This document shows, piece by piece, positions 12,433 through 49,862 of a DNA stretch of 64,000 nucleotides. Made by a program: the position numbers and the translations under genes. Every line of letters begins with the position of its first letter. Positions within the stretch are counted from its first letter, which is position 1. This DNA comes from Dictyostelium discoideum (Eukaryota), in NCBI GenBank assembly GCA_000004695.1, contig CM000151.3, positions 3,264,001 to 3,328,000 on the forward strand. The letters run 5' to 3'. The notes beneath the pieces were generated by a model. The model did no database searches. It saw only the letters and a program-made list of their open reading frames with translations, and was not told the DNA's origin.

Positions 12433-12472
<40 letters not shown>

Positions 12473-12481
12473 CGATTTTTT

Positions 12482-12847
12482 TTATTTAAACAAATTTTGA
12501 ATTGAACAGTAGTTCGACTGTCTAGAGGAAATTATGGAATTTTTAGGATCTACCAAATGTTTAGGTTTTCTACCTCTTTTAAATTGATCTGGATTGGTAC
12601 AAGCGGGACATTCTTGGTCTTTGCAAAGATTTTTGTGACACTTTTCATGTCTACGACGGTGTTTTGTGTGGCAGAGGAAAGTGCAATCAGAGTGGCGGCA
12701 CATTACCATTGGTTTATTTGAAGCAGATTTATTTCTTACAGCACCTGCATGTTTCTTGGTAATATGTCTTGAGAGTGAGCTAGCGTAACCATAAGACATG
12801 CTGCAAAATTTTTGGGTACATTTGTAAGCACCTTTTTCAGTTTTCAT
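12482..12847 (-). CDS. Small Cys/His-rich protein (121 aa) with C2H2-like zinc-finger spacing
   Basis: ATG verified (cat at 12845-12847 on plus). Finger-like units are 'CTQKFCSMSYGYASSLSRHITKKH' (C-x4-C-x12-H-x5-H) and 'CRHSDCTFLCHTKHRRRHEKCH'. Its GC content is visibly higher than the surrounding intergenic DNA. Confidence 0.5.
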   Translation of the reverse strand: MKTEKGAYKCTQKFCSMSYGYASSLSRHITKKHAGAVRNKSASNKPMVMCRHSDCTFLCHTKHRRRHEKCHKNLCKDQECPACTNPDQFKRGRKPKHLVDPKNSIISSRQSNYCSIQNLFK

Positions 12848-13394
12848 TATTATTATTGTTATTTAAAAAAAAAATTAGAGATATATAGAAAAAAAAAAAA
12901 AAAAAAAAAAATAATATAGATTATAGAGATATATAATAAGAAAAATAAATAAAAATAAATAAATAAAATTGTTTAAAAAAAAAGTAATACATTTTTTTTT
13001 TTTATTTTTTATTTTTTTTTTTTCAAAATCATAGTTGTGTTGAATTTAATTAAAAACTAGTTAAATATGGGACTAAGATGTGGTAAATTTTTTTTTTCAT
13101 TTTTATTATCATTATTTTTTTGCACTGATAATTATTTGAAAAGGAATAAAATAATTGCGATATAATTTACAAATATAAATATATGTAAGTGAGTATACTA
13201 GTATTTTTTTTTTTTTTTTTAATTTTTTTTTTTTTTAAATTAATTAAAAAAGTGTTCAATTATATATTTATTTTGATTTTGATTTTAAGTTAAGTGAATT
13301 GAATTCTTCTTTTTAATAGTGCTTTTTTGATTTTTTTCACTATATATATTTTTTTTTTTACAATTTTTATTGTAAAGATATTTTTTTTTTTTTT

Positions 13395-13536
13395 TTTTTA
13401 AAATAAAAAAAGGTTTGAAACTATCATATCTGCCCAATATCTCTAGGGTTTTAAAAATTTCCATTCATATATTTTTTGTAATTATCTTTATTTAAGTTTT
13501 GTCTAATTAAATGCCTAGATAAAATGGAGTCCAAAG

Positions 13537-13568
<32 letters not shown>

Positions 13569-14409
13569 AAAAATAAATAAAATCATTTTATATCTTTCTC
13601 ATTGTTTGAATAAAAAACAAAACAAATTATTTTATATCTTTCTCATTGCTTAGATTGGGATTTTTATAATTATTTTTTTAAAATTAAATTGTTAAATTTT
13701 TTTTTACTGATCAAAATTTTTTCATATCTTTTGAAAAAAAAAAAATAAAAAAAATCTTAAAAATATAAATAATATTCATTTTAATTGTAACAACTGGTGG
13801 TCGGTGTCATCAGTGTTAGTTTTTCCTAATGATTTCTTTATTGTATTGGTTATTGCTGCTGAAGTTATTGGTGTTGTAATGTTGGGTGATGATGGTGGTG
13901 TCGAATGGTTATTTAATTGTTGTTGAGATTGTTGATTTATTAATTGAATGTGTTGTTGAAGAAGTTGATTTTGTTTATCTATTACCTGCTGCTGTTCCCT
14001 TATTTGACGTTGCTGTTCATTGAATGTTGATACCTGTGGTTGTTGTTGTTGTTCCTCATTATCCTGTTGTTGAGATTCATCATTAGCAATATATTCAATT
14101 TAATTGATGACCGTAGCCCTATCGCGTTTTTATTATTTTGTATATATTTATTACTGAGGTTGAATTAGAAACCTAGTTCTTTTTATAGTTAACAGATTTG
14201 AGCGAACTACTTCAACCTCAGCCGATAGGGTTAGATCCAATTTAAACTACAATATTATATTATTTTAATTTTATTCTAATTAATTATTATTTTCTTTTTA
14301 ATTAAATTATTTTTGAATTTATATTATTATTTTATGTGGTGATTTTGTGTGACATTTTTTTAATATCTGGTATCTAATATCTATTATGAAAACTTTTGTG
14401 AAATTAAAA

Positions 14410-14469
<60 letters not shown>

Positions 14470-14750
14470 AAAATTAAATTTAATTTAAAATTAATTAAAT
14501 TACAACGGGAGAAAACCCCTTTAAACAAAACAATAAGGATGGAGGTGGATTAAAAAAACTCTTTTTGTCCCATAGTAAAACACTATTTTTAGTCAAAAAA
14601 AAAAAAAAATCAAATAATTTCAAACATATTATTTAAAAGTTTAAATTTTTTTATTTTTTTTTTATATTTTTTATTTATTTTTTATATCTCCTACTTTTAT
14701 TAAATTAAAAAAAAATAATCCAAATTATTTTCTTTTTTAATTATTATTAC
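13395..14750. repeat. Composite dispersed-repeat block, copy 1 (modules R1, gene fragment, R2, R3), 3' of AACS-like gene A
   Basis: - R1 13395-13790: 'aaaggtttgaaactatcatatctgcccaatatct...aaatggagtccaaag...' recurs at 17826-18215.
- R2 14100-14530 recurs at 18840-19270. It holds nested inverted repeats: outer 'gtagccctatcg'/'cgatagggttag', inner 'ctgaggttgaa'/'ttcaacctcag', then a ~65-nt poly(T) tract.
- R3 14535-14750 ('ggaggtggattaaaaaaactcttt...ccaaattattttcttttttaattattatt') recurs at 18420-18660 and 19275-19490. Confidence 0.8.
13800..14100 (-). pseudogene. Orphan Q-rich coding fragment (~100 codons, no start) embedded in repeat block copy 1
   Basis: The reverse-strand translation is open: '...EYIANDESQQQDNEEQQQQPQVSTFNEQQRQIREQQQVIDKQNQLLQQHIQLINQQSQQQLNNHSTPPSSPNITTP...'. 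It has coding-like composition but no ATG, and it is absent from repeat block copy 2. Confidence 0.4.
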
Positions 14751-14807
14751 TCTTTTTTTTTTTTTTTTTTTTTAGAACAAAAACAATTTACAAAAACTTT
14801 GCTAAAA

Positions 14808-16823
14808 TTAATTTTTCATATATAACTCTTTGATTTTATAAAATAGTTCAGAGTCATTGACATCGTCTGGTAATTGATAGTTTGGATCATTTAATAAATT
14901 TGATAAAATTTGTCTTGGAATTTTACCAACTTTTGTTTTTGGTAATTGGTTAATAACTATTATTTTTTTTAAGACTGCCAGTGATTCAATATCTTGCGTG
15001 ATGATATTATTAATTTCATTTTGTAATTTATTTAAATCAATTGATGGATTTTCTTTTAATACCAATATACCAATCGGTGCAGTACGACAATCTGGACTTA
15101 AAATACCAATAGAACAACATTCTAAAACTGATGGATGTTTTAAAATTGATGTGTCAATTGTATTTAATTGAATTTTATTACAACTTATCTTAATTTGATC
15201 ATCTGATCTTGAAACAATTGTATAAAATCCTCTTTGATCTATATAACCTAAATCACCTGAATCATAGTAACCTGGAAACCTTGTAAATAGTTGTTTAAAC
15301 TTTTCATCATTTTTATAAAATGTAATTGCAAAACTGGGTGGCATTGGTAGTTTAAATGCAACTAAACCAATTTCATTTGAATTCAAAACTTCACCTTCTT
15401 CTGAAAGTATTGATGGTCTAATATAAATTGATGGTACGCCAGTGGCTCTATAAGGAATATTTAAAGCATGGACACTAATAAATGAAGTTACGCCAATTTC
15501 ACTTTGACCGTATACTCTTAAACATTTTATTTTTAACTTTTGTTCAATGTATTCTGGAATTGATTCTTCAATTACTTCACCGCCACACCATATTTCTTTT
15601 AAATTTGATAAATCATACTTAGAACGTACAATTGTTCCTTCAGGATCAGTTTTAATAAGGTATCTAAATACAGATGGGGATGGAAATGTATGTGTTACTT
15701 TATGTTTTACAATAGCTATCCATAAATCATCTTCTATATGTTCGTTTTTTATAATACCACCTTCATACATTACCAAGGTGTTTCCTCCAGATAATAAACC
15801 ATAAAAGAAACCATGAAATGATACCCACCCAATATTTGCATTTGAAAATACAATTTGAGGTATATCTGATTCTTTACGGAATGTATAGTATTTAATACCA
15901 ACCATATGCGGACCATTACTTCTTACAACAGCTTTGGTATTACCAGTTGTGCCACTTGTATAAAGTATATATAATGGATGACTTGATTCTACTGGTACAT
16001 ATTCATAAAATGGTGATTGATTATTTTCTTTTAATTTTTTAATTTCATCATACCAACTTAATGTATTTGGAATAGTTGGAATATTTTGAACTTTTTTTAA
16101 TTTTGTTTCATCCAAAACTTCATTTCTAAATAGAGTAATTACATTACTTGGTTTAAAAGTTGATAATTCAATTGCTTCTTTTAAATTTGGTGTAAATGTA
16201 ATGATTTCGTCATTAAAAATACCATAATTTGTTGTAATTATTAATTTTGGTGTAATTGTTTCGATTCTATCTATTAAACTTTTAACCGAATAACCATCGA
16301 ATAATGTACATTGAGTTGCACCAATACGAGCACATGATAACATTGCAATTAATGGTTCTAATGTATTTGCCATAAATATTAAAACATTATCATTTTTTGA
16401 AACATTTAAGTTTAAAAGAACTCTTGAAAATTTACATACTTTTTCATATAATTGATAATAGGTTAATTTAATTGTTTTCTTTAAATATGGACATTCATAA
16501 ATTAATGCATCTTGATCTCTTTTAGCAGGATTTTTAATATGAATGTCTAATAAATTATAACATGTATTTAATTCACCACCTTTAAACCAATCTGGATATA
16601 TTTCATCGCCACTATAAACTTTATCATACATTTTTTCCCTTTTATTTTTAAAAATCTTAGTTTTTGTTTTAATTTTAATATCTCTTTTTTAACAAAGAAA
16701 AAAAAAGATATATATTTACCAAAAAACATTCTTTTTAGCAACCTCATCCCAAAAAGCTTCTGGATTAGAATTTGAATAACTGTTATCATTTAAATAATCA
16801 AAAGGATCACTAAGTTTATACAT
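14808..16823 (-). CDS. Acetoacetyl-CoA synthetase-like AMP-binding enzyme, paralog A (2 exons)
   Basis: - Exon 2: 14808..16638, ORF of 607 aa.
- Exon 1: 16720..16823, MYKLSDPFDYLNDNSYSNSNPEAFWDEVAKKNVFW.
- Intron: 16639..16719 (GTAAAT...AG, phase 2), joining as W|EKMYDKVY.
- Motifs: PDWFKGGELN; P-loop YTSGTTGNTKAVVRSNG; YGQSEIG; FPGYYDSGD; SRSDDQIKI; A10 PKTKVGKIPR.
- Closest architecture is AACS (WFKG..LN, SSGTTGAPK, FSKFPG..GD). Confidence 0.85.
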
Positions 16824-17522
16824 ATTTGTTTTTAATTATTTAATAAAATGAAAATGAAAAATTAAATATAATAAAATACAAATGAAATATTAAAAAAAAA
16901 AAAGAAAAAAAAAATTAATAATACTAAATCATGGAAAAAAAAAATTTATACATAAAAATAAATTTTATTGCACCCGTCATTAAAAATTATTCATATTATG
17001 AATATCCTAAATTACAAAAAGTGAGTAAACTAGAATTATGAAATGAATAAAATTAAATAAAAAAAATATGTCCACTAATAATTTCAATTAAGATTATTTA
17101 AAAGATACATGAAAAAGGTTTATTTAAAATCTCCAAATTTATTCCTACTACTTTTTTTTACATATACCATAATTCATAATAAAAAAAAATAAGAAATTAA
17201 TGTCGCAATAAAAAATATAAATAAATAAAATAATATGGAGAATTTTTTGGGAAAGTGCAAAAATTCTAATGAAAAAAAAAAAAATTCTTATTGTTTGTTA
17301 GATAATATTTTTATATAATAAAATTTTTAATAAACTAATATCAATTTCTAATTAATAATTAATCACACTTTATTATTAAATTATCATAAAATAATTAAAA
17401 AGAATCTGGCCATAAAAAAAATATATTTTAATAAATTAAAAATTGAAAAAATCTTATATTATTTAATTAGAATTGAATATTAATTTGTCATTAAATTATA
17501 AAAAATTTATTGATTTACCATA

Positions 17523-17640
17523 TTGTGAGAAATTTTACTATTGTAATTTCTCATTTTTTAAAACATAAAACTATAATTTAATAATATACAACAATTAATA
17601 GGAAATAATACTATTGAAATTTCTCATTTTTTAAAACATT
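17523..17640. repeat. Tandem direct duplication (~60-bp unit x2)
   Basis: 'tattgtaatttctcattttttaaaacataaaactataatttaata' is followed by the near-identical 'tattgaaatttctcattttttaaaacattaaactatagtttaata'. Confidence 0.8.
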
Positions 17641-17825
17641 AAACTATAGTTTAATATATTGTAGATTATTAAAAACTATAATAAAATGATAAAAAATAAT
17701 GGGTGTACAATAAATATTTAAATAAAAAATATTAAAATATAAGAATTTTTATTTTTTTTTAAATAATTTAACATTTTACTAGGTTTTTTTTTCCCGTGCA
17801 AGATATTTTTTTTTTTTTTTTTTTA

Positions 17826-17961
17826 AATTAAAAAAAGGTTTGAAATTATCATATCTGCCCAATATCTATAGGGTTTTAAAAATTTTCATTCATATATTTT
17901 TTGTAATTATCTTTATTTAAGTTTTGTCTAATTAAATGCCTAGATAAAATGGAGTCCAAAG

Positions 17962-17999
<38 letters not shown>

Positions 18000-19148
18000 A
18001 AATATAAATAGAATCATTTTATATCTTTCTCATTGTTTGAATTAAAAACAAAACAAATTATTTTATATCTTTCTCATTGCTTAGATTGGGATTTTATAAT
18101 TATTTTTTTAAAATTAAATTGTTAAATTTTTTTTTACTGATCAAAATTTTTTCATATCTTTTGAAAAAAAAAAAATAAAAAAAAATCTTAAAAATATAAA
18201 TAAATATTCATTTTAATAACCAAACAGTCTAGTTTTTATTTTTATTTGCAGTTTTTTAAGAAAAAAAAATTTAAAAAAATTTATCTATTTTTCCTTATTT
18301 TCTCTATTTTTTTTTTTTTTTAAGGAATATCTCTTTAGTGGTGATAAAAAATAAAAAAAGGATAGAATCCAAAAAATATGGATAATTAATTAATAATTTG
18401 GATATATGTAAAATAATAAGGAAGGAGGTGGATTAAAAAAACTCTTTTCGTCCCATAGTAAAACACTATTTTTAGTCAAAAAAAAAAAATAATTAAAAAA
18501 AAAAAATCAAAAAAAAAAAAATCAAATAATTTCAAACATATTATTTAAAAGTTTAAATTTTTTTATTTTTTTTTTATATTTTTTATATATTTTTTATATC
18601 TCCTACTTTTATTAAATTAAAAAAAAAATAATCCAAATTATTTTCTTTTTTAATTATTATTGTTGGAGGGAATTTTCCATAAAATTTCACTACAGTAGCG
18701 TAGTGAATTTTATTATTTAATTTGACTACGCTGCTGTAGTGAATTCCTATTGACGGTGCGTTCATGAAGTTAAACCTGGGTGGTGTGTGTTACACAATAT
18801 ACCGTGTGAGAATTCACAATAAGCAAATATTTCAATTTTATTGATGTCGTAGCCTTATTGCGGTTTTAATATTTTGGAAAAAATTAAAAACAGAGGTTGA
18901 AATAGAAACCTTAGTTCTTTTTTAAGTTACAAAATTTGTGCGACTTCTTTCAACTCAACCGATAAAGTTAGAATCCATTTTAACTACCAAATTATATTAT
19001 TTTTATTTTATTCTTATTTATTATATATTTCTTTTTTAATTAAATATTTTTGAAATTATAATAATATTTTAAGTGGGGAATTTGTGTGACATTTTTTTTA
19101 TATTTTGGTTTTTAAATATTATAATGAAACTTTTTGTAAAATTAAATA

Positions 19149-19207
<59 letters not shown>

Positions 19208-19490
19208 AAAATTAAATTTAATTTAAAATTAATTAAATTACAACGGGAGAAAACCCCTTTAAACAAAACAATAAGGATGGAGGTGGATTAAAAAAACTCT
19301 TTTTGTCCCATAGTAAAACACTATTTTTAGTCAAAAAAAAAAAAAAATCAAATAATTTCAAACATATTATTTAAAAGTTTAAATTTTTTTATTTTTTTTT
19401 TATATTTTTTATTTATTTTTTATATCTCCTACTTTTATTAAATTAAAAAAAAATAATCCAAATTATTTTCTTTTTTAATTATTATTACTC
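17826..19490. repeat. Composite dispersed-repeat block, copy 2 (R1, R3, GC-rich hairpin element, R2, R3), 3' of AACS-like gene B
   Basis: Same modules as 13395-14750 but rearranged: R1 17826-18215, R3 18420-18660, R2 18840-19270, R3 19275-19490. From the poly(T) of R2 through the gene the two copies are nearly identical. The hairpin part of R2 is more diverged (about 85%). Confidence 0.8.
18668..18745. repeat. Near-perfect 17-22-bp inverted repeat (hairpin) in a GC-richer ~190-bp insertion unique to repeat copy 2
   Basis: 'cactacagtagcgtagtgaatt' - 16-nt spacer - 'ctacgctgctgtagtgaattc', with one mismatch in the stem. The flanking 18750-18850 is also GC-richer than its surroundings. Confidence 0.7.
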
Positions 19491-19545
19491 TTTTTTTTTT
19501 TTTTTTTTTTTAGAACAAAAACAATTTACAAAAACTTTGCTAAAA

Positions 19546-21561
19546 TTAATTTTTCATATATAACTCTTTGATTTTATAAAATAGTTCAGAGTCATTGACA
19601 TCGTCTGGTAATTGATAGTTTGGATCATTTAATAAATTTGATAAAATTTGTCTTGGAATTTTACCAACTTTTGTTTTTGGTAATTGGTTAATAACTATTA
19701 TTTTTTTTAAGACTGCCAGTGATTCAATATCTTGCGTGATGATATTATTAATTTCATTTTGTAATTTATTTAAATCAATTGATGGATTTTCTTTTAATAC
19801 CAATATACCAATCGGTGCAGTATGGCAATCTGGACTTAAAATACCAATAGAACAACATTCTAAAACTGATGGATGTTTTAAAATTGATGTGTCAATTGTA
19901 TTTAATTGAATTTTATTAAAACCTATCTTAATTTGATCATCTGATCTTGAAACAATTGTATAAAATCCTCTTTGATCTTTATAACCTAAATCACCTGAAT
20001 CGTAGTAACCTGGAAATCTTGTAAATAGTTGTTTAAACTTTTCATCATTTTTATAAAATGTAATTGTAAAACTGGGAGGCATTGGTAGTTTAAATGCAAC
20101 TAAACCAATTTCATTTGAATTCAAAACTTCACCTTCTTCTGAAAGTATTGATGGTCTAATATAAATTGATGGTACGCCAGTGGCTCTATAAGGAATATTT
20201 AAAGCATGGACACTAATAAATGAAGTTACGCCAATTTCACTTTGACCAAATACTCTTAAACATTTTATTTTTAACTTTTGTTCAATATATTCTGGAATTG
20301 ATTCTTCAATTACTTCACCACCACACCATATTTCTTTTAAATTTGATAAATCATACTTAGAACGTACAATTGTTCCTTCAGGATCAGTTTTAATAAGGTA
20401 TCTAAATACAGATGGGGATGGAAACGTATGTGTTACTTTATGTTTTACAATAGCTATCCATAAATCATCTTCCATATGTTTGTTTTTTATAATACCACCT
20501 TCATACATTACCAAGGTGTTTCCTCCAGATAATAAACCATAAAAGAAACCATGAAATGATACCCACCCAATATTTGTATGTGAAAATACAATTTGAGGTA
20601 TATCTGATTCTTTACGGAATGTATAGTATTTAATACCAACCATATGCGGACCATTACTTCTTACAACAGCTTTGGTATTACCAGTTGTGCCACTTGTATA
20701 AAGTATATATAATGGATGACTTGATTCTACTGGTACATATTCATAAAATGGTGATTGATTATTTTCTTTTAATTTTTTAATTTCATCATACCAACTTAAT
20801 GTATTTGGAATAGTTGGAATAGTTTGAACTTTTTTTAATTTTGTTTCATCCAAAACTTCATTTCTAAATAAAGTTATTACATTACTTGGTTTAAAAGTTG
20901 ATAATTCAATTGCTTCTTTTAAATTTGGTGTAAATGTAATGATTTCGTCATTTAAAATACCATAATTTGTTGTAATTATTAATTTTGGTGTAATTGTTTC
21001 GATTCTATCTATTAAACTTTTAACCGAAGAACCATCGAATAATGTACATTGAGTTGCACCAATACGAGCACATGATAACATTGCAATCAATGGTTCTAAT
21101 GTATTTGCCATAAATATTAAAACATTATCATTTTTTGAAACATTTAAATTTAAAAGTACTCTTGAAAATTCACATACTTTTTCATATAATTGATAATATG
21201 TTAATTTAATTGTTTTCTTTAAAAATGGACATTCATAAATTAATGCATCTTGATCTCTTTTAGCAGGATTTTTAATATGAATATCTAATAAATTATAACA
21301 TGTATTTAATTCACCACCTTTAAACCAATCTGGATATATTTCATCGCCACTATAAACTTTATCATACATTTTATCCCTTTTATTTTTAAAAATCTTAGTT
21401 TTTGTTTTAATTTTAATATCTCTTTTTTAACAAAGAAAAAAAAAGATATATATTTACCAAAAAACATTCTTTTTAGCAACCTCATCCCAAAAAGCTTCTG
21501 GATTAGACTTTGAATAACTATTATCATTTAAATAATCAAAAGGATCACTAAGTTTATACAT
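19546..21561 (-). CDS. AACS-like AMP-binding enzyme, paralog B (2 exons); recent duplicate of A
   Basis: - Exon 2: 19546..21376 (607 aa).
- Exon 1: 21458..21561, MYKLSDPFDYLNDNSYSKSNPEAFWDEVAKKNVFW.
- Intron: 21377..21457.
- About 14 aa differences from A (about 97.7% identity).
- Same motif set as A. Confidence 0.85.
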
Positions 21562-22263
21562 ATTTGTTATTAATTATTTAATAAAATGAAAATGAAAAAT
21601 TAAATATAATAGTGCACAAACTCTAATGAAAAAAAAAAAAAAAAAAAAAAATTCTTATTGTTTGTTAGATAATATTTTTATATAATTAAAAATAAAAAAT
21701 TTTAATTAAAATAAATTAAATTATTTCCACTAAAATATTTTAGAAATTCTACACACCCCAGTGTGTTTTTTAATTTAATTTAATTTATTTTAATTAAAAT
21801 TTTTATTTTTATGTTGTTTGTTAAAAATGCTAATAATAAGTAAATATTTTTTTAAAGTGCTTGTTACGATTAAAATTAATTTTTTTTTTAAAGATTTTTC
21901 AACATTTGAAACTTATTAAAAAAAAAAAAAATTTTAATCATTACAAACAATATTTATATTATTATTATTTTTTTTATTTAATATTGATTAATCACAGTTT
22001 ATGCATTAAAGGAAATAAACAATAATTTATATCCGTCCTTATTATTTTTTTTGAATTTTTAACCTTTTTTTTAAAACAAAACTTCTAATGTAATCAAAAG
22101 GTAAAACACTATTTTTTATCAAACCAATAAAAAAAAAAAAAATATAATTAAATTTTTTTATTTTTTTATTTATTAAATTTAAAAAATAAATAATTCAAAT
22201 TTTTTTTTTTTTATTATTTTTTTTTCAAAAAATAAAAACAAATTTTTAAATTAAGTTTACTAA

Positions 22264-24281
22264 CTATAAATTTTTCATATATAATTCTTTGATTTCATAA
22301 AATATTTCAGTGTCACTGACATTATGGGGTAGTTGATAATTTGAATCATTTAATAAATTTGACAAAATTAGTCTTGGAATTTTACCAACTTTTGTTTTTG
22401 GTAATTGGTTAACAATTAAAATTTTTCTTAAGACTGCACATGATTCAATATCTTGTGTAATGATATTATTAATTTCATTTTGTAATTTAATTAAATCAAT
22501 TGATTGATTTTCTTTTAATACTAATACACCAATTGGTACACTACGAATAACTGGATCATAAATACCAATCGAACAACATTCTAAAACTGATGGGTGTTTT
22601 AAAATTGACGTTTCAATTGTATTTAATTGAACTTTTTTATAACCGATTTTAATTTGATCATCTGATCTCGAAACAATTGTATAAAATCCTCTTTGATCTT
22701 TATAACCTAAATCACCGGTATTATAATAACCTGGGAATTTAGAAAATAATTGTTTAAACTTTTCATCATTTTTATAATATGTAGTTGCAAAACCTGGTGG
22801 CATTGGTAGTTTAATTGCAACAAAACCAATTTCATTTGAATTCAAAACTTTACCTTCTTCTGAAAGTATTGATGGTTTTATGAAAATTGATGGTATGCCA
22901 GTGGCTTTATAAGGCATATTTAAAGCATGAACACTAATAAATGAAGTTATGCCAATTTCACTTTGACCAAATACTCTTAAACATTTTATTTTTAACTTTT
23001 GTTCAATGTATTCTGGAATTGATTCTTCAATTACTTCACTACCACACCATATTTCTTCTAAATTTGATAAATCATACTTTGAACTGATGATTTTTCCTTC
23101 AGGATCAGTTTTAATAAGGTATCTAAATACAGATGGGGATGGAAATGTATGTGTTACTTTATGTTTTACAATTGTTTTCCATAAATCATCTTCAATATGT
23201 TTGTTATTTATAATACCACCTTCATACATTACAAATGTATTCCCTACAGATAGTAAACCATAAAAGAAACCGTGAAATGATACCCACCCAATATTTGAAT
23301 ATGAAAATACAATTTGAGGTATATCTGATTCTTTACGGAATCTATAATATCTAATACTAACCAAATGTGGACCATTACTTCTAACAACAGCTTTAGCATT
23401 ACCAGTTGTACCACTTGTATATAGTATATATAATGAATGACTTGATTCTACTGGTACATATTCATAAAATGGTGATTGATTATTTTCTTTAAGTTTTTTA
23501 ATTTCATCATACCAACTTAATGTATTTGGTATCGTTGGTATATCATTTACTTTTTTTAAATTTGTTTCATCCAAAACTTCATTTCTAAATAAAGTTATTA
23601 CATTACTTGGTTTAAAAGTTGATAATTCAATTGCTTCTTTTAAATTTGGTGTAAATGTAATGATTTCATCATTTGATATACCATAGTTTGTTGTAATTAT
23701 TAATTCTGGTGTAATTGTTTCGATTCTATCTATTAAACTTTTAACTGAATAACCATCGATTATTGTACAATGAGTTGCGCCAATACGAGCACATGATAAC
23801 ATTGCAATTAATGGTTCTAATGTATTTGACATATAAATTAAAACAACATCATTTTTTGAAACATTTAAATTTAAAAGTACTCTTGAAAATTCACATACTT
23901 TTTCATATAATTGATAATATGTTAATTTCTCAGTTTTCTTTAAAAATGGACATTCATAAATTATTGCATCTTGATCTCTTTTAGTAGGATTTTTTGTATG
24001 AATGTCTAATAAATTATAACATGTATTTAATTCACCACCTTTAAACCAATCTGGATAAATTTCATCACCACTATAAACTTTATCATACATTTTATCCCTT
24101 TATTTTAAAAATATTAGTTTTTGTTTTAATATTAAAATCTCTTTTTTTATAAAGAAAAAAAAAAAAGATATATTTACCAAAAAACATGCTTTTTTGCCAC
24201 TTCATCCCAAAAATCCTCAGGATAAGAATTTGCATAATTACTGTCATTTACATAATTAAAAGGATCACTAAGCTTATACAT
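22264..24281 (-). CDS. AACS-like AMP-binding enzyme, paralog C (2 exons)
   Basis: - Exon 2: 22264..24097 (608 aa).
- Exon 1: 24178..24281, MYKLSDPFNYVNDSNYANSYPEDFWDEVAKKHVFW.
- Intron: 24098..24177.
- P-loop GNAKAVV; A10 PKTKVGKIPR. Confidence 0.85.
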
Positions 24282-24662
24282 ATTAATTTTTAATTAATTA
24301 AATAAATTATAAAAAAAAAAAAAAAAAAATTTTAAAAATTAATTTTAAAATTAAATATAATATAAATTAAAATTAAAAAATTTAATTATATATAAAAAAT
24401 AAAAGATTTAAATAATGATATATATTTTAAAAAATAAAAGATAAAAAATAAATAAAAATAAATGGGGGTGTTAAAAAACAAAAAATAACCACAAACACTT
24501 CTTTAAACTGTTTTATTATTTAACAGTTTTTTATTAAATACAATTTTCATTAATTGACCAATTATTATAATCATTTTAAAATTTTCCAATTTTATTCACA
24601 ATATTTGAATCTATTTTATATCATTTAACATATATTTTGTAAATTAATTCGATTCAAAATTT

Positions 24663-24702
<40 letters not shown>

Positions 24703-24753
24703 AATAAATAAAAAATGAGTAATAAATGATTAAAAATAGTTATTTTTAACTTT

Positions 24754-26290
24754 TCATATATAATTCTTTAATTTCATAAAATATTTCAATGTCAATGATA
24801 TTATCTGGAAATTGAAAATTTGAATCATTAAAAACTTTGGTCTTGGAGTTTTACCAGCTTTGGTTTTTGGTAATTGATTAACAACTACAATTTTTCTCAA
24901 GACTGCTAACGATTCAATATCTTGTGTAATGATATTATTAATTTCAGATTGTAATTTATTTAAATCAATTGAGTTGATTGATCTTGTTTTTGCTTTAAAA
25001 CTTTTTTTCAATGTATTCTGGGATTGATTCTTCAATTACTTCACCTCCAACCATAAATTCTTTTAAATTTGATAAACCATACTTTGAACGTATAATTGTT
25101 CCTTCAGGATCAGTTTTAATAAAGTATCTAATAGTGCTTGCCAATGACAATGCATGTGTCACTTTATGTTTTTCAATGGTATTCCAAAAGTCAACTTCAA
25201 TATATTTGTTTTTTATAATACCACCTTCATACATTATAAATGTAGATCCAGATGACAACAAGCCTTATAGGGAACCATGAAATGATATCCATCCGACATT
25301 TGAAAATGTAAATAATTTTATATTTTCATATTTTTCTGAAATATATCTGTTAAAGTAATTCATACAAACTAAATTTGGACCATTACTTCTTACAACTGCT
25401 TTAGCATTACCAGTTGTACCACTTGAATAAATAATATATAGTGGATGACTTGATTCTACTGGTACATATTCATAAAATGGTGATTGATTATTTTCTTTAA
25501 GTTTTTTATTTTCATCATACCAACTTAATGTATTTGGTATCGTTGGTATATCTTTTACTTTCTTTAAATCTGATTCGCTTGTAATATCATTTCTAAATAA
25601 AGTAATTACATTACTTGGTTTAAAAGTTGATAATTCAATAGATTCTTTTAAATTTGTGATGAAATTAATGATTCCATCATTAAAAATACCATAGTTTGTT
25701 GTAATTATTAATTTTGGTGTAATTGTTTCAATTCTATCTATTAAACTTTTAACTGAATAACCATCGAATAATACACAATGAGTTGCACCATTATGAGTAC
25801 ATGATAAAATTGCAATTGGTGCTTCAACCGTATTTGCCATATATATTAAAACATTATCATTTTTTGAAATATTTAAATTTAAAAGTACTCTTGAAAATTC
25901 ACATACTTTTTCATATAATTGATGATATGTTAATTTTACAGTTTTCTTTAAATATGGACATTCATAAATTAATGCATCTTGATCTCTTTTTAATGGATTT
26001 TGAACTTGTTTATCTTTATTTTTAGACTTGTTTCATATAAATTATAACATGTATTTAATTCACCCTTTAAACCAATCTGGATACATTTCATCACCACTAT
26101 AAACTTTATCATACATTTTATCCCTTTTAAAAATATTAGTTTTTGTTTATATTTTTTATATAAAGAAAAAAATGTATTATCTTACCAAAAAACATTCTTT
26201 TTTGCAACTTCATCCCAAAAAGCCTCAGGAAAAGAATTTGCATAATTGAAATCATTTAAATTATTAAAAGGATCACTAAGTTTAAACATT
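24754..26290 (-). pseudogene. AACS-like pseudogene D: multiple frameshifts and an internal deletion
   Basis: - The homologous reading frame is split across ORFs 24754..25035, 24995..25261 and 25265..25840.
- Further frameshifted N-terminal pieces run to ~26110. One example is 'ccctttaaaccaatctgg', which lacks 2 nt relative to the 'ccacctttaaaccaatctgg' of intact copies.
- An exon-1-like segment survives at ~26185..26290 (MFKLSDPFNNLNDFNYANSFPEAFWDEVAKKNVFW).
- About 140 codons of the middle are missing. Confidence 0.8.
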
Positions 26291-26881
26291 CTTATTTTAT
26301 TAATTTAAAAAAAAAATTAAATTTAAAATTAAATATTAATAATTTATATAATTGTATTAAAAAAAAAAATTAAAAATTATAATTATAATAAAATAAAAAA
26401 AATAAAAATAACCAAAAAAAAAAGTAATTGGGGTGTAAAAAACAAATTACCACAAACACTTTTAATTTGTTTTGTAATTAAGAAATATTTTTATTATATA
26501 AAATATAAAACTTTTCTTAATGATAAAACAGATTAAAAGGAATTTTTACATTTGGATCTCAATTTTTTTCTTTCCAAATATTTTTCTTAGATTACTAATA
26601 CTGCAATATTAAATAAAAAAAGGAAAAATATCTTTAAAAAATTATAGAAAATTATTATAAAAAAAAAATGACTAAAAACATTGGTTATTGTAGAGTAAAA
26701 AATTAAAATATATGAATATTTAAATTTAAAGACAAAACAAAATATGATATATAAATAAAATTTTAATAATTATTTTATTTGCTAATGTTATTATTTTTTG
26801 TGAATTTTTAAAAATAATTTTAAAAACAAAAAAAAATGACAATAAATGATTAAAAAAAAAACTGTCAATTTTTTATAAAGA

Positions 26882-28902
26882 TTAATTTTTCATATATAAT
26901 TCTTTGATTTCATAAAATATTTCAACGTTATTGACATTATCAGGTAATTGAAAATTCGAGTCATTTAAAAACTTTGATATAATTGGTCTTGGAATTTTAC
27001 CAGTTTTTGTTTTTGGTAATTGATTAACGATTACAATTTTTCTTAAGACCGCTAATGATTCAATATCTTGTTTAATTATATAATTTATTTCATTTTGTAA
27101 TTTATTTAAATCAATTTGTTGAATTGATTGATCTTGTTGTTGTAGTTGTTTTAAAACCAATAAGGCTATTGGTACACTATAACAAGTTGGATCGTTAATA
27201 CCAATTGAACAACATTCTAAAACTAATGGATGTTTTAGTATTGATGTTTCAATTGTATTTAATTGAACTTTATTACCACTGATTTTAATTTGATCATCTG
27301 ATCTTGAAACAATTGTATAGAATCCATTTTCATCTTTAAAACCTAAATCACCAGGATTGTAGTAACCTGGAAATTTTGAAAATAATTGTTTAAACTTTTC
27401 ATCATTTTTATATAATGTAGTTGCAAAACTTGGTGGCATTGGTAATTTAAATGCGATTTCACCAATTTCGTTAACACCTAATTCTTTACCATCGTCTGAA
27501 AATATTGATGGTCTAATGAAAATTGATGGTAAACCAGTTGCGTAGTATGGGATATTAATATGATCAAAACAATATAAATAAGCTATACCAATTTCAGTTT
27601 GACCATATCCCCTTGTTGGTTTTATTTTTAACTTTTTTTCAATGTATTCTGGGATTGATTCTTCAATTACTTCACCTCCGACCCATATTTCTTTTAAATT
27701 TGATAAATCATACTTTGAACGTATAATTGTTCCTTCAGGATCAGTTTTAATAAAGTATCTAATAGTGTTTGCCAATGATAATGTATGTGTCGCTTTATGT
27801 TTTTCAATGGTATTCCAAAAGTCAACTTCAATATGTTTGTTTTTAATAATACCACCTTCATACATTACAAATGTAGATCCAAATGACAACATACCATATA
27901 GGAAACCATGAAATGATACCCATCCGACACTTGAAGTTGTCAATAATGTTGTACATTCATATTTTTCTGAAATATATCTGTCAAAGTAATTCATACAAAC
28001 TAAATTTGGACCATTACTTCTTACAACTGCTTTAGCATTACCAGTTGTACCACTTGAATAAATAATATATAGTGGATGACTTGATTCTACTGGAACATAT
28101 TCATAAAATGGTGATTGATTATTTTCCTTGAATTTTTTAATTTCATCATACCAACTTAATGTATTTGGTATCGTTGGTATATCTTTTACTTTCTTTAAAT
28201 CTGATTCGCTTGTAATATCATTTCTAAATAAAGTAATTACATTACTTGGTTTAAAAGTTGATAATTCAATTGCATCTTTTAAATTTGGTGTAAATGTAAT
28301 AATTTCATCATTAAAAATACCATAGTTTGTTGTAATTATTAATTTTGGTGTAATTGTTTCAATTCTATCTATTAAACTTTTAACTGAATAACCATCGAAT
28401 AATACACAATGAGTTGCACCAATACGAGCACATGATAACATTGCAATTAATGGTTCTAAAGTATTTGCCATATAAATTAAAACATTATCATTTTTTGAAA
28501 TATTTAAATTTAAAAGTACTCTTGAAAATTCACATACTTTTTCATATAATTGATAATATGTTAATTTTATAGTTTTCTTTAAATATGGACATTCATAAAT
28601 TAAAGCGTCTTGATCTCTTTTTAATGGATTTTGAACTTGAATATCTAAAACATTATAACATGTATTTAATTCACCACCTTTAAACCAATCTGGATACATT
28701 TCATCACCACTATAAACTTTATCATACATTTTATCCCTTTTAAATATATTAGTTTTTGTTTTTAATTTTTTTTTTTGTAGAAAAATGGATTATCTTACCA
28801 AAAAACATTCTTTTTTGCAACTTCATCCCAAAAAGCCTCAGGATAAGAATTTGCATAATTAAAATCATTTAAATAATTAAAAGGATTACTAAGTTTAAAC
28901 AT
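26882..28902 (-). CDS. AACS-like AMP-binding enzyme, paralog E (2 exons)
   Basis: - Exon 2: 26882..28736 (615 aa).
- Exon 1: 28799..28902, MFKLSNPFNYLNDFNYANSYPEAFWDEVAKKNVFW.
- P-loop YSSGTTGNAKAVV.
- Q-rich insert LKQLQQQDQSIQQIDLNKL before the A10 motif PKTKTGKIPR. Confidence 0.85.
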
Positions 28903-29183
28903 ATTTTAGGTTAAAATTAAATGAATAATTTATATAATTGTAATAAAAAACAATTAAAAATAATAAATAAAATAAAACAAGATTTGAAAAAAAAAAAAAA
29001 AAAAAAAAAAAAATTGGGGTGTTGAAAAAAAAAAACAAATAACTACAAACACTTTTGAGCTGTTTAATAATAAAAAAAACAAGATTTTAAAAAAAATTAA
29101 AAAAATAAAAAAATTTTAAACACAAATAAAAAAAAAAAAACAATAAATGGTTTTAAAAAAAAAAAACTTGTTTTTTATAAAGA

Positions 29184-31234
29184 CTAATTAATTTTCGTAT
29201 ATAATTCTTTGATTTCATAAAATATTTCAACATTACTGATGTTATCGGGTAATAGAAAATTTGAATCATTTAAAAACTTTGATATAATTGGTCTTGGAAT
29301 TTTACCAGTTTTTGTTTTTGGTAATTGATTAACAATTACAATTTTTCTTAAGACTGCTAATGATGCAATATCTTGTGTAATGATATTATTAATTTCAGAG
29401 TGTAATTTATTTAAATCTATTTGTCGAGTTGACTGATCTTGTTGCTGTTGTTGTTGTTGTTTTAAAACTAATAAGGCTATTGGTACACTATAACAAGTTG
29501 GATCGTTAATACCAATTGAACAACATTCTAAAACTGATGGATGTTTTAGTATTGATGTTTCAATTGTATTTAATTGAACTTTATTACCACTGATTTTAAT
29601 TTGATCATCTGATCTTGAAACAATTGTATAAAATCCATTTTCATCTTTAAAACCTAAATCACCAGGATTGTAGTAACCTGGAAATTTTGAAAATAATTGT
29701 TTAAACTTTTCATCATTTTTATAAAATGTAGTTGCAAAACTTGGTGGCATTGGTAATTTGAATGCGATTTCACCAATTTCGTTAACACCTAATTCTTTAC
29801 CATCGTCTGAAAATATTGATGGTCTAATGAAAATTGATGGTAAACCAGTTGCGTAGTATGGGATATTAATATGACCAAAACAATATAAATAAGTTATACC
29901 AATTTCAGTTTGACCATATCCCCTTGTTGATTTTATTTTTAACTTTTGTTCAATGTATTCTGAAATTGATTCTTCAATTGGTTCACCACCAATCCATATT
30001 TCTTTTAAATTTGATAAATCATACTTTGAACGAAGGATTGTTCCTTCAGGATCAGTTTTAATAAGGTATCTAATAGCGCTTGCCAATGATAATGCATGTG
30101 TTACTTTATGTTTTTCAATGGTATTCCAAAGGTCAACTTCAATATGTTTATTTTTTATAATACCACCTTCATACATTACAAATGTAGATCCAAATGACAA
30201 CATACCATATAGGAAACCATGAAATGATACCCATCCAACACTTGAAGTTGTCAATAATGTTGTACTTTGATTATTTTCTGAAATATATCGGTTAAAGTAA
30301 TTCAAACAAACCATATGTGAACCATTACTTCTTACAACTGCTTTAGAATTTCCAGTTGTACCACTTGTATATATTATGTATAATGGATGACTTGATTCTA
30401 CTGGAACATATTCATAAAATGGTGATTGATTATTTTCCTTGAATTTTTTAATTTCATCATACCAACTTAATGTATTTGGTATCGTTGGTATATCTTTTAC
30501 TTTCTTTAAATCTGATTCGCTTGTAATATCATTTCTAAATAAAGTAATTACATTACTTGGTTTAAAAGTTGATTGTTCAATTGCATCTTTTAAATTTGGT
30601 GTAAATGTAATGATTTCATCATTTAATATACCATAGTTTGTTGTAATTATTAATTTTGGTGTAATTGTTTCAATTCTATCTATTAAACTTTTAACCGAAT
30701 AACCATCGAATATTGTGCAATGAGTTGCACCAATACGAGCACATGATAACATTGCAATTAAAGGCTCCAATGTATTTGCCATATAAATTAAAACATTATC
30801 ATTTTTTGAAATATTTAAATTTAAAAGTACTCTTGAAAATTCACATACTTTTTCATATAATTGATAATATGTTAATTTAACAGTTTTCTTTAAATATGGA
30901 CATTCATAAATTAAAGCATCTTGATCTCTTTTTAATGGATTTTGAACTTGTCTATCTAAAACATTATAACATGTATTTAATTCACCACCTTTAAACCAAT
31001 CTGGATACATTTCATCACCACTATAAACTTTATCATACATTTTATCCCTTTTTTATTTTATTTTAAAAAAAAAAATTGTTATTTTAATTAGTAATTATTA
31101 ATATATAAAAAAAAATAAACAAATAATTACCATTTAATTAATTTCTTTGCAACTTCATCCCAAAAAGCTTCTGGCTCATTATTTGCATAAGTTTTATCAT
31201 TTAAATAATCAAATGGTTCGCTTAGTCTATACAT
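29184..31234 (-). CDS. AACS-like AMP-binding enzyme, paralog F (2 exons)
   Basis: - Exon 2: 29184..31047 (618 aa).
- Exon 1: 31131..31234, MYRLSEPFDYLNDKTYANNEPEAFWDEVAKKLIKW.
- Intron: 31048..31130 (donor GTAATT).
- P-loop GNSKAVV.
- Poly-Q insert (QQQQQQQDQSTRQIDLNKL). Confidence 0.85.
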
Positions 31235-31298
31235 TCTTTTAATATAAGTATTAATAATAATAAAAAAAAAAAAAACTATTGAATATGGAAGAAGAAAG

Positions 31299-31330
<32 letters not shown>

Positions 31331-31589
31331 AATAATAAAAAAAATGATATGTGATATTAATAAAATAAAATTAAAAATAACTAATAAATTTTATAGTATC
31401 ATTAATTGATCCAATAATTATTATTATTATTACTATTTACAAAACAAATATAAAAAAAGTCTGAATAATAACCACTGACACCCACATACACTGAAAAATA
31501 CAGAAATAGAAATAATAATTTAATAATAATTTTAATTGAAAAAAAAAAACAAACACATACCCAAAAATTCAAACTGTTTTATTTATAAA

Positions 31590-36431: not shown

Positions 36432-37293
36432 ATGTCATATTACAAAGATGAAATTTTAAACTCTTTAAATTTATCAGATTTTTGTTATGAAAAAGATGAT
36501 TCAACAATAATTAAAAAATTTAATGAAAATTTTGAAACTCATGATATTGAAAGAGTAATTAGAGGTGAGATTGAATGTAGTGGTCAAGTTTTTATAATTG
36601 GATATCGTGAAAAAGATATTAATAATAATAGTGAATTTAAAAGAAGGAATACCTATTATGTATCATTTAGAGGTACAGAATTTAATTTTAGTGATATTAC
36701 AACCGATTTAAATAGTATTAAAGAATTTAAAGAAAAACAAGGTACATATCATAAAGGATTTCTTAAAAGGACAATAGGATTTCCAATTCAAATTATAATT
36801 CAATGGTTAGAGAATGGTGATAATGTAATATTCTCAGGACATAGTTTAGGTGGATCAGTATCACAAATTTTAACAATATCTATAATTTTACAAATATCAA
36901 AAAATAAACTTGAAACCATTTTAAAAAATTCACAAATTCTATGTATTACATTTGGGTCACCATTAATTGGAAATACTGATTTATTAAAAACATTAGAAGA
37001 TAATCAAATTTTAAATTATAATATATTTCATTCAATTATTCATAGAAATGATCCAATACCAAAATTGCAAGGTTTAAATAATTTTGTTAATAATAATATG
37101 TTATCAATTGCAAAGAATACAATTTGTTGGTTATTTGAATTTGATAGAATTAAAATTGATGGAATTATAAATTCATTTTATCAAACATTATCAGAATCTT
37201 CAAAATCTAGTTTAAATTCAAAATTTAATTTTATGGCAGATTTAAATTCAGTAATTGGTTTATATCATATCATTCAACATGATTTATATATTG

Positions 37294-37376
<83 letters not shown>

Positions 37377-37880
37377 TATAGTTTTATAAAATCATTATGC
37401 CATAAAAATGATTTAAATGAATTAAATGAATTTTTTAAATTTAATCATGAAAATTTCTCAAAAATTCTATTTCATAAATTATCAACTTATAGAGATATTT
37501 TGATTTATGAATTAATAACATCAAAAGTATTAAAAAATTCAACAACAACAACAACAATAATATCAAATAAAGTAAAACCAATGGTAGATTTAATTCCTAT
37601 TATTAAAAGTGTTTCAATTAACAAAAGTAATAAAAAAAATGAATTGATTACAATTGTTGGTGAAAATTTATGTTTTATTTCTATAAATACATTGAAATTA
37701 ATTTATAGTGATGGAACAAAGGATATTTTATTGAAATCAATAATTCAAAAGAGTAATAATCAAATTGTTATTGACGCTACTGACATACCAACTGGCAATT
37801 TAAAATCACTTCAATTTAAATCAAATTTTAAATATAATAACACAAGTAGTAATAATGAAATTTATTTACAACAAATTTAA
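36432..37880 (+). CDS. Class-3 (fungal-type) lipase domain protein (482 aa) with internal poly-N tract
   Basis: ATG at 36432. Lipase_3 signatures are 'YVSFRGTEFNFSDITTDL' (RGT motif) and the nucleophile elbow 'FSGHSLGGSV' (GHSLGG). A 32-residue poly-N run is encoded by (AAT)n at 37300-37375. Confidence 0.8.

Positions 37881-39395: not shown

Positions 39396-40331
<936 letters not shown>

Positions 40332-42775: not shown

Positions 42776-42779
<4 letters not shown>
40775..42779 (+). CDS. AACS-like AMP-binding enzyme, paralog H (2 exons)
   Basis: - Exon 1: 40775..40866, MYKFNYENDIDFANNQPIEFWDEVAKDLVHW(+tg).
- Intron: 40867..40927 (GTAAGT...AAAAG).
- Exon 2: 40928..42779, ...W|DKMYEKVYSDDEIYPDWFKGGELN...
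- P-loop YTSGTTGNSKGAV; YGQTETG; A10 PKTKAGKIQR. Confidence 0.85.
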
Positions 42780-42841
<62 letters not shown>

Positions 42842-42899
42842 GTAATAATAATAATAATAATAAAAATAAAATAATAATAATAATAATAAAATAATAATA

Positions 42900-45770: not shown

Positions 45771-45775
45771 TGTTA

Positions 45776-45875
<100 letters not shown>

Positions 45876-49700: not shown

Positions 49701-49862
49701 TTCTTTTTTAAATTTGCTGATTAATTTTTATTAAGATTTTTTGACAAAAAAAAAAAAAAAAATCTTCGATAAAATAAAAAAAAAAAAAAAAAAGATTAAT
49801 AAACTTTTTTTTTTTTTTTTTTTTTTTTTAATTTTATTTTATTAAAATAATTTTGGAAAAAA

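Follow-up and report, generated by a model that had tools for sequence, protein, structure and literature searches.

The 64-kb window analysed here, a stretch of the Dictyostelium discoideum AX4 reference, contains two neighbouring genes, A and B, that are almost the same at the base level, and this raises the question of whether they are a young tandem duplication, an old pair kept alike by gene conversion, or one gene that the assembly wrote twice. We consider it highly probable that A and B arose when a ~3.9-kb unit was duplicated once in tandem, a real event that took place in the NC4 lineage after its split from one-copy Central American isolates and was followed by independent divergence. 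Part of the sequence beside gene B may be an error of the reference assembly, and we weigh this possibility separately. For comparison we used GCA_054883475.1, a Nanopore+Illumina assembly that is independent of the AX4 reference and probably derives from strain AX2-214 (hereafter the AX2-like assembly); the strain identities of the other assemblies compared here are those we infer.

The strongest repeat in a self-BLAST of the window pairs 14004-16916 with 18750-21653 (95.6% over 2924 columns, E=0, 4650 bits). Within it lies an ungapped core at a fixed offset of 4738 bp that extends from the 3' flank across both exons and the 81-nt intron to 50 bp upstream of exon 1, with 34 mismatches in 2463 positions and no indels (98.6%), in full agreement with the near-identity that the initial annotation had described from the poly(T) tract through exon 1 and ~50 bp beyond. 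The introns do not differ at any of their 81 positions. Homology ends sharply at 13375/17800 and at ~17318/21687, delimiting two directly oriented, neighbouring units of ~3.9 kb each, yet the units do not abut, as 481 bp intervene:

13375-17318, minus strand: duplication unit A (~3.9 kb), with distal module, 3' flank, gene A and 495 bp upstream
17800-21687, minus strand: duplication unit B (~3.9 kb in the AX4 reference, ~3.2 kb in the AX2-like assembly)
17319-17799, no strand: 481-bp spacer between the units
14411-16873, no strand: ungapped near-identical core of A (partner 19149-21611)
13375-13785, no strand: distal duplicated module (partner 17800-18217)
14808-16823, minus strand: gene A (DDB_G0273365/DDB_G0273687, Q557A9), 644-aa protein
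16720-16823, 16639-16719 and 14808-16638: exon 1, GT-AG intron (81 nt) and exon 2 of gene A
19546-21561, minus strand: gene B (DDB_G0273229/DDB_G0273689, Q557A8), 644-aa protein
21458-21561, 21377-21457 and 19546-21376: exon 1, intron and exon 2 of gene B (the model of A shifted by +4738)

The distal module, previously only implied, aligns with 403 matches, 7 mismatches and 9 gap columns, and its part at 13375-13593 is ancestral 3' flank that is also found in the wild isolate L002, but next to the core, identity in the AX4 reference drops to ~78% (14004-14410 against 18750-19148).

The two-exon, one-intron gene model proposed earlier is correct for both copies. Their proteins are near-identical, as stated, although the count of about 14 differences in 607 residues should read 15 of 607 for the ORFs, and is 17 of 644 over the full length. 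Both ORFs are intact, with the motifs YTSGTTG and PKTKVGK present in the translation, and both copies are under ordinary purifying selection (A-B dN/dS 0.27). By domain architecture, A and B are predicted ANL-superfamily acyl-CoA synthetases: ACAS_N, AMP-binding and AMP-binding_C score 60, 174 and 47 bits in the gene A protein (Pfam gathering cut-offs 27, 29.9 and 24.5). This is the domain order of Acs and PrpE, and the A/B proteins match the AcsA and PrpE models, as well as solved Acs structures, over their full length. Unlike Acs and PrpE themselves, they score less than half of the equivalog cut-offs and do not reach those for acetate/propionate-CoA ligase (341 vs 725 bits for TIGR02188, AcsA; 328 vs 955 for NF007815, PrpE; 281 vs 827 for TIGR02316). 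No paper in the literature searched names the A/B gene IDs.

The AX2-like assembly carries the genes in the order E, D, pseudogene, C, B, A and a 121-aa gene. It is base-identical to the window across genes A and B, and outside a 727-bp block discussed below the two assemblies are 99.6-99.9% identical; at a cluster of differences between them (13288-13333), L002 splits 6 to 7 between the two and favours neither. Because both genes and all 34 A-B differences recur in an independent Nanopore assembly, the duplication is not an assembly artefact. Where the initial annotation had allowed for long reads resolving to a single copy, the long-read assembly holds two.

A and B lie at the edge of an 11-member array on chromosome 2 and are its youngest pair. 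Their dS of ~0.04 (0.041-0.042) is the lowest of 36 array pairs, the next youngest pair (D-E) standing at 0.12 and all others at 0.19-0.54, and nucleotide and protein trees alike place them as sister genes. In a neighbour-joining tree, (A,B) is sister to g644 of the diverged wild isolates L002 and L003, C groups with g646, and the gene from a cf. discoideum genome falls outside. Both isolates end the array with g648, g644 and the 121-aa gene, so that a single A/B ortholog sits between the C ortholog and the 121-aa gene, and no second protein at least 89% identical to A was found in either of them (for L003, gene regions were compared via alignment and flanks over ~3 kb only). The cf. discoideum genome, which ends with a 645-aa gene and the 121-aa gene, has one gene for the entire A/B/C clade. 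Since the isolates have one A/B ortholog and cf. discoideum one gene for all of A, B and C, the array edge appears to have grown from one gene to two and then to three, although the one-copy state of the outgroups could instead reflect loss. The dS ranking, the sister relationship and the two single-ortholog isolates thus support the earlier proposal of a duplication far more recent than the remaining array.

How recent the event was depends on the scale. The dS of A and B to the single orthologs in L002 and L003 is 0.19-0.22 and equal for both copies, which would put the age of the duplication at about 20% of that of the split from these isolates. At the published D. discoideum rate of 2.5e-11 substitutions/site/generation (PMC7466956, PMC9849192), a dS of 0.04 corresponds to roughly 4-8e8 cell generations; at hundreds of millions of generations, the initial label "very recent" holds relative to the array only. 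All 34 differences, 33 of which are coding, could be polarised, 18 being derived in A and 16 in B, and this even split, together with the dN/dS, is consistent with plain divergence after a single duplication. The locus offers a clean, dated case of a metabolic gene family growing stepwise in tandem, with 1, 2 and 3 copies in three lineages related to one another, seen in an organism with very low measured point mutation and duplication rates.

Outside the genes, the two units have been remodelled in several ways, which involve the following features:

16872-17255, no strand: 384-bp segment upstream of gene A, absent from B
14597-14748, no strand: element E, 153 bp, in the 3' flank (other copies at 19335-19486 and 18509-18661)
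18666-18753, no strand: partial copy (right arm and inner left arm) of a putative palindromic MITE-like element
13786-14540, minus strand: A-specific copy, 755 bp, of a dispersed segment that is found on another chromosome

The "~380-bp indel" noted earlier measures 384 bp, and the downstream alignment resumes beyond it as claimed (17256-17318 vs 21612-21687, 61 matches and 2 mismatches). Since the segment has a counterpart upstream of the single ortholog in L002 (77% identical), it is ancestral and was deleted from the promoter region of B. With 384 bp of conserved promoter-proximal DNA missing from one copy, the pair could serve to study whether regulation is the first thing to diverge in young duplicates.

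On the 3' side, unit B of the AX4 reference has two copies of element E, one 98.7% identical to that of A (18509-18661) and one 100% identical (19335-19486), the latter inside the AX4-only block. The distal E of B and the next ~60 bp match A up to the start of the dispersed element. The palindrome is complete in the AX2-like assembly (locus L001, 8056-8163), where it spans ~104 bp with 55-nt arms that are 95% complementary and with the 5-bp target duplication ATAAT on either side; element E of A has the site without the insertion, GAGTAATAATAATT. Judged by its inverted repeats, target-site duplication and empty paralogous site, this insertion in the flank of B appears to be MITE-like; it occurs once within the window and the loci compared. 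The dispersed segment of A corresponds to a small Q-rich gene, ACTFIT_010762, of which it covers the upstream region and a 5' coding fragment that lacks the start; the fragment is 95.5% identical, and the remainder 84%, with gaps related to polyT. The interval between 3' flank and module is not collinear, A having the 755-bp dispersed element and B ~200 unrelated bp (18218-18425). These showed no clear homology to the dispersed element of A, to loci L005 and L006 or to B-prox (z -1.4 to 0.6, apart from 2.7 against L005, where the score stayed below that of the best shuffle). Likewise, the 481-bp spacer showed no homology to the distal flank of A, the L002 flanks or the C-B intergenic region (z <=0.7 against shuffles). 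A tRNA scan of the window and an Rfam scan of the window and L001 gave no match, which leaves neither a known ncRNA nor a retroelement that targets tRNA genes to account for the flanks.

We propose that an intron-containing ACS/PrpE-like gene, together with a short promoter and some 1-2 kb of its 3' flank, would have been duplicated as one unit in the lineage leading to NC4, the parent of AX2 and AX4, after divergence from the Central American isolates, and that this would be the latest step in the expansion from one to three genes beside the 121-aa gene. The copies would then have acquired point substitutions independently, about 17 per copy, while their flanks would have been altered by the promoter-proximal 384-bp deletion in B, the palindromic insertion in B and the arrival of a dispersed element in A. 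The duplication may have formed by unequal sister-chromatid or homolog exchange, or by a replication-based process that left the 481 bp as junction filler. A single-step duplication does not predict the spacer, the non-collinear flank or the ~78% segment, and for these later events or assembly error must be invoked.

One block 3' of gene B overlaps the perfectly identical part of the flank:

18754-19480, no strand: 727-bp block beyond the 3' end of gene B, part of the AX4 reference but absent from the AX2-like assembly
14411-15084, no strand: 674-bp tract that the AX4 reference repeats without a mismatch at 19149-19822, with a T55 of equal length in both

From the gene outward, the block consists of sequence identical to the flank of A (19207-19480), the T55 tract (19152-19206) and a ~78% identical member of a dispersed-repeat family (18754-19148). 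The initial annotation had warned of assembly trouble in this region, and this is borne out in part: both genes proved sound, but this block, with the identical 3' flank that had been stressed, is the part that the second assembly lacks.

We give an even chance to the reading that the duplication is real and the block is a mis-assembly of the Sanger-era AX4 reference, in which reads from the flank of A and from another dispersed-repeat member were joined across T55 and the hairpin; the perfect non-coding 3' flank and the equal-length T55 would then be artefacts. The block is missing from an assembly that otherwise agrees closely with the window, and both internal joins fall at features that Sanger reads could not cross, the T55 tract and the 104-bp palindrome. 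At the partial palindrome the two lab strains differ at 6 of 80 bp, a divergence that a rate of 2.5e-11 substitutions/site/generation (PMC7466956) makes impossible. Copies of the repeat family to which the ~78% part belongs lie on other chromosomes, and the T55 tracts of A and B are exactly equal in length even though the tract of A is 14 nt shorter in the AX2-like assembly. Set against this, three mis-joins are required, and the source of 18754-19148 was not found among the loci compared: two other loci of the family, L005 and L006, were rejected as donors, the best match being 82% in L006. The error, or a strain-specific deletion, could also lie on the side of the AX2-like assembly, and AX4 has two copies of the whole region, which possibly differ.

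A biological origin of the 727-bp difference is possible but less probable. It would have ectopic recombination or conversion via A and another repeat copy rebuild the 3' flank of B in AX3/AX4, or a deletion occur in AX2, after AX2 separated from AX3/AX4 or in NC4 sublines, and the locus would then still be unstable. A stretch of 674 bp identical to A that ends exactly at a homopolymer has the look of a very recent conversion tract, and D. discoideum lab stocks do accumulate duplications and deletions (PMC2643946). However, the AX4 structure offers no route to the complete palindrome of AX2 and its 5-bp target duplication, and would itself have to arise by two or more ectopic joins in the space of a few decades; spontaneous duplication and deletion rates are low (1-4e-8 per gene per generation; PMC9849192). 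We regard as unlikely the broader version of this idea, that the array edge is a recurrent and still active rearrangement hotspot, with two successive gene gains (one, two and three genes in cf. discoideum, the Central American isolates and NC4) and a 3' flank of B that truly differs between AX2 and AX4, rebuilt within decades by ectopic recombination among A, the dispersed repeat family and the palindromic MITE-like element.

The 674-bp tract also bears on the initial suggestion of ongoing gene conversion. Conversion is common in tandem arrays of this kind. An old duplication predating the L002/L003 split could have been homogenised by conversion, with the wild isolates losing one copy by unequal crossing-over, a history that we hold to be improbable. 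The AX4 reference does present mosaic identity (100% over 674 bp, 78% over ~400 bp, 98% in the module), and the perfect run, which like an interlocus conversion tract ends abruptly at a homopolymer, exceeds the expectation under uniform divergence (P=6e-4). Nonetheless, the block missing from the second assembly contains the ~78% segment and half of the perfect run; only 14743-15084 has a counterpart in its B copy, so that without unconfirmed sequence the evidence for later conversion falls to 342 bp confirmed in both assemblies (P=0.085). Conversion would also be expected to leave phylogenetic mosaicism or a donor signature from other paralogs, but in all 200-bp windows the outgroup genes lie at equal distance from A and from B, and the derived changes are balanced. 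Derived states coincide with paralog C at only 8 of the 34 differences, without runs, and conversion from C was rejected as the source of the A/B differences, which do not track it. The non-coding pieces outside the core (the module, E plus flank with 3 mismatches over ~215 bp, and the upstream segment) have diverged by ~1.5%, the same as the gene, and the extra copy is absent from two isolates and the cf. discoideum genome. Ongoing conversion between A and B is thus weakly supported. Finally, assemblies are known to produce tandem copies as alike as these by error, and the two compared are locally discordant here, but the chance that the entire pair is one true copy written twice is negligible, given the C-B-A-121aa order in GCA_054883475.1, the exact recurrence of 34 fixed differences (17 amino-acid changes), and the distinct upstream regions (384-bp deletion) and flanks of A and B.

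A single real duplication followed by independent divergence makes A and B an evolutionarily young tandem duplication of an ordinary kind, which changes no general concept and is of practical value to users of the D. discoideum reference, who should treat 18754-19480 as unverified sequence. Among dictyostelid multigene arrays with young tandem duplicates, those of the tgr genes, for which Holland et al. 2025 (PMC12745789) compared this set of genomes, resemble the A/B array in their direct neighbours, in copy number that varies between close genomes, in pseudogenes beside intact copies and in birth-and-death dynamics. Unlike the tgr genes, the A/B family consists of metabolic rather than recognition proteins, and A and B are under purifying selection (dN/dS 0.27) with no sign of diversifying selection or shuffling. 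Outside dictyostelids, the closest relatives of A and B are bacterial propionyl-CoA synthetases (33-36% identity), and group-4 dictyostelids have at least 10 family copies per genome.

The A/B duplication is also distinct from the ~750-kb inverted duplication on chromosome 2 of AX3/AX4 (Bloomfield et al. 2008, PMC2643946; cited in PMC12745789). The latter is of laboratory age, inverted, about 200 times larger and made of copies that are identical in the reference, whereas the A/B pair is direct, 3.9 kb long, separated by 34 substitutions and present too in the AX2-like assembly, which is without the large duplication. Because the A/B locus lies inside the large duplication, AX4 has four gene copies, and A and B each carry two DDB_G gene IDs and two GenBank protein accessions, as expected. 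With four near-identical copies in AX4, knock-outs, RNA-seq mapping and variant calling at this locus need the 34 paralog-specific sites.

We show that A and B, neighbouring acyl-CoA-synthetase-like genes on the minus strand (14808-16823 and 19546-21561), are a real, ordinary young tandem gene duplicate within a growing array of enzyme genes, in a model organism whose genome is well annotated. The strongest repeat of the window in self-BLAST pairs 14004-16916 with 18750-21653 (95.6% over 2924 columns). Within it, 14411-16873 and 19149-21611 align at a fixed offset of 4738 bp with 34 mismatches and zero indels, bearing out the near-identity of gene, intron and flank described in the initial annotation, and 14411-15084 is 100% identical between the copies, including a T55 tract of matching length. 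Coding differences at 33 sites change 17 of 644 amino acids, 15 of them inside the 607-residue reading frame for which about 14 had been counted. The suspected ~380-bp indel is real and measures 384 bp (16872-17255, A only), with the alignment resuming beyond it, and a second duplicated module pairs 13375-13785 with 17800-18217 (7 mismatches) before homology stops sharply at 13375/17800 and ~17318/21687. The overall observation is therefore confirmed, except that about 400 bp (14004-14410 and 18750-19148) are just 78% identical and a 481-bp AT-rich spacer (17319-17799) separates the units.

The reconstructed 644-aa proteins exactly match proteins of the 8.48-Mb AX4 chromosome 2, Q557A9 (A; DDB_G0273365/DDB_G0273687) and Q557A8 (B; DDB_G0273229/DDB_G0273689). 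The window has ~21% G+C and long homopolymers, and both genes are intact, spliceable and constrained, with this structure:
minus strand, A and B: exon 1 of 104 nt, GT-AG intron of 81 nt, exon 2 of 1831 nt

The intron shows no difference between the copies. Both proteins carry ACAS_N, AMP-binding and AMP-binding_C domains and are related to acetyl-/propionyl-CoA synthetases, with scores far under equivalog cut-offs; Acs-type enzymes are their closest solved structures, and bacterial propionyl-CoA synthetases (33-36% identity) their closest non-dictyostelid sequences. For each protein, gene IDs and GenBank accessions come in pairs, which is the signature of genes within the ~750-kb inverted duplication known on chromosome 2 of AX3/AX4 (PMC2643946; PMC12745789). 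We infer from this doubling that A and B lie inside that duplication, so that AX4 would have four gene copies; this laboratory-age event is separate from the A/B duplication, of which the searchable literature yielded no description.

An assembly artefact, in which long reads would show one copy, is rejected by a second genome. Assembly GCA_054883475.1 (tag ACTFIT) fits, by accession series and labels, the Nanopore and Illumina set of Holland et al. 2025 (PMC12745789) and is very probably AX2-214, because its identity to AX4 is 99.6-99.9% and the locus occurs in it just once. It keeps the order of the window (paralogs E and D, pseudogene, C, B, A, 121-aa gene), without base differences over A, B and their upstream regions. 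Since an independent assembly is base-identical over both genes, all 34 differences are real paralog-specific variants.

Comparison with other isolates dates the event. Two assemblies labelled D. discoideum (tags ACTFIR and ACTFIW), by elimination probably the isolates CR116C and OT3A from Costa Rica and Mexico, are ~7-8% diverged at this locus and carry one gene (g644) in place of A and B, plus one C ortholog. A and B are 0.016 apart over the gene and equidistant from g644 (0.069/0.068 and 0.075/0.075), while distances group C with g648/g646; a protein NJ tree is concordant. In cf. discoideum (GCA_054859205.1) a single gene beside the 121-aa gene represents the entire A/B/C clade. The stretch from the array pseudogene to the 121-aa gene holds one gene in cf. 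discoideum, two in the wild isolates and three in AX2/AX4; therefore, the array grew stepwise at one edge.

The A-B pair has dS 0.042, dN 0.011 and dN/dS 0.27 (NG86), with dS to the orthologs of 0.19-0.22. All 34 differences could be polarised: A carries the derived state at 18 of them and B at 16 (derived replacements, as raw counts, 7 and 10), and non-coding pieces distant from the gene diverge by the same ~1.5%. This pattern is that of a single duplication followed by independent, clock-like divergence. The duplication is about one-fifth as old as the split from the wild isolates, or roughly 4-8e8 cell generations at the published substitution rate of 2.5e-11 per site and generation (PMC7466956, PMC9849192); it is young relative to the array and not recent in absolute terms. 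Ongoing gene conversion, proposed as an alternative, draws support from a 674-bp perfect A-B run (P=6e-4) when 18754-19480 is included; without that block the longest run is 342 bp (P=0.085). Evidence for later conversion therefore depends on unverified sequence, and against it stand the 18:16 balance and the absence of runs among the 8 of 34 differences that coincide with paralog C.

Since no repeat or microhomology was found at the breakpoints apart from AT-rich sequence, we can only infer the mechanism: the simplest explanation would be that ~3.9 kb were copied, either through unequal exchange or in a replication-based process that left the 481 bp between the units as filler. The spacer, for which no homolog was detected in either flank or the outgroup locus compared, may be such filler. 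Relative to the wild isolates, each AX4 unit has over 1 kb of additional 3' flank, common to the two, separating the stop codon from ancestral flank that begins near 13593; the insertion is therefore older than the duplication. The 384 bp that only A has upstream are ancestral, being 77% identical to sequence 5' of the single ortholog in the ACTFIR assembly, and are promoter-proximal DNA lost from B at 21611/21612, so that B may be regulated differently. In A, 13786-14540 (minus strand) repeats a segment that lies on another chromosome (locus L005, 5443-6327; 95.5% in the gene-fragment part, 84% in the rest), comprising the upstream sequence and the 5' portion of the coding region of ACTFIT_010762, a small Q-rich gene (DDB_G0271474-like family). 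The copy, whose identity is also given as 95-97%, holds an open 107-codon fragment with no start codon; the dispersed family has copies on other chromosomes and a further member at locus L006 (3518-3813). B's distal flank (18420-18661) matches A's at ~98.6% up to the exact start of this element in A, and from that point ~200 unrelated bp lead to the module.

The expectation that this region is prone to mis-joins is partly borne out: 727 bp 3' of gene B (18754-19480) may be mis-assembled, and the genes themselves are confirmed. Of the two assemblies, the AX4 reference alone has this block. There (L001 8056-8163) the AX2-like assembly carries a palindrome of ~104 bp, with arms of 55 nt and a target duplication of 5 bp (ATAAT), inserted into a 153-bp 3'-flank element; this is a MITE-like insertion, and its empty site is visible in A. 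All that AX4 retains of the palindrome is the right arm and the inner part of the left (18666-18753), which mismatches the AX2-like copy at 6 positions. Three parts make up the block: 274 bp equal to A's flank, a T55 that matches A's in length, and a ~395-bp, 78%-diverged dispersed-family member. We consider a reference mis-assembly most likely, with about even confidence: the block is joined internally at a 55-nt homopolymer and at a hairpin, both difficult for Sanger reads, and 6 mismatches in 80 bp between sister laboratory strains cannot come from point mutation at the measured rate. A real AX3/AX4- or AX2-specific rearrangement comes next, as a tentative possibility, and the remaining probability falls to an error in the Nanopore assembly. 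Users of the AX4 reference should be warned about these 727 bp. The T55 tracts (14414-14468 and 19152-19206) have exactly the same length in the reference; the AX2-like assembly shows A's tract 14 nt shorter. Dense clusters of substitutions and small indels between the assemblies (12465-12488, 13288-13333 and 18666-18747) exceed what mutation between sister laboratory strains could produce and point to local sequence errors in one assembly.

The array comprises seven minus-strand copies (A to F plus a pseudogene) and four plus-strand copies, in two head-to-head sub-arrays flanking a lipase and an HPP-family gene:
14808-33754, minus strand, sub-array of acyl-CoA-synthetase genes
24754-26289, minus strand, array pseudogene, broken in AX4 (ORFs of 93 and 191 aa)
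36432-37880, class-3 lipase gene between the sub-arrays
39396-40331, HPP-family membrane-protein gene between the sub-arrays
40935-51894, plus strand, sub-array of acyl-CoA-synthetase genes
43936-45767, plus strand, broken array member (ORFs of 383 and 192 aa in AX4)

A and B are clearly its youngest pair: their dS of about 0.04 (0.041) is the lowest, against 0.12 for D-E, ~0.20 for A/B-C and 0.26-0.54 for other pairs, upholding the earlier proposal of a duplication much younger than the rest. The 24754-26289 member is also fragmented in the ACTFIR assembly (199 and 180 aa), and the ACTFIW assembly has an intact 650-aa gene there (L003 4233-6269); such broken and intact states across genomes are birth-and-death turnover of the array. 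Its boundary is marked by the Cys/His-rich 121-aa ORF (12482-12847), which has no Pfam match and is conserved next to this edge in each of the four genomes compared. Paralog F (31736-33754) carries, within the enzyme fold, a long run of Gly/Ser dipeptides as well as insertions rich in Asn and Gln, and its ORF stops without the usual C-terminal motif; it may contain an extra intron or be decaying.
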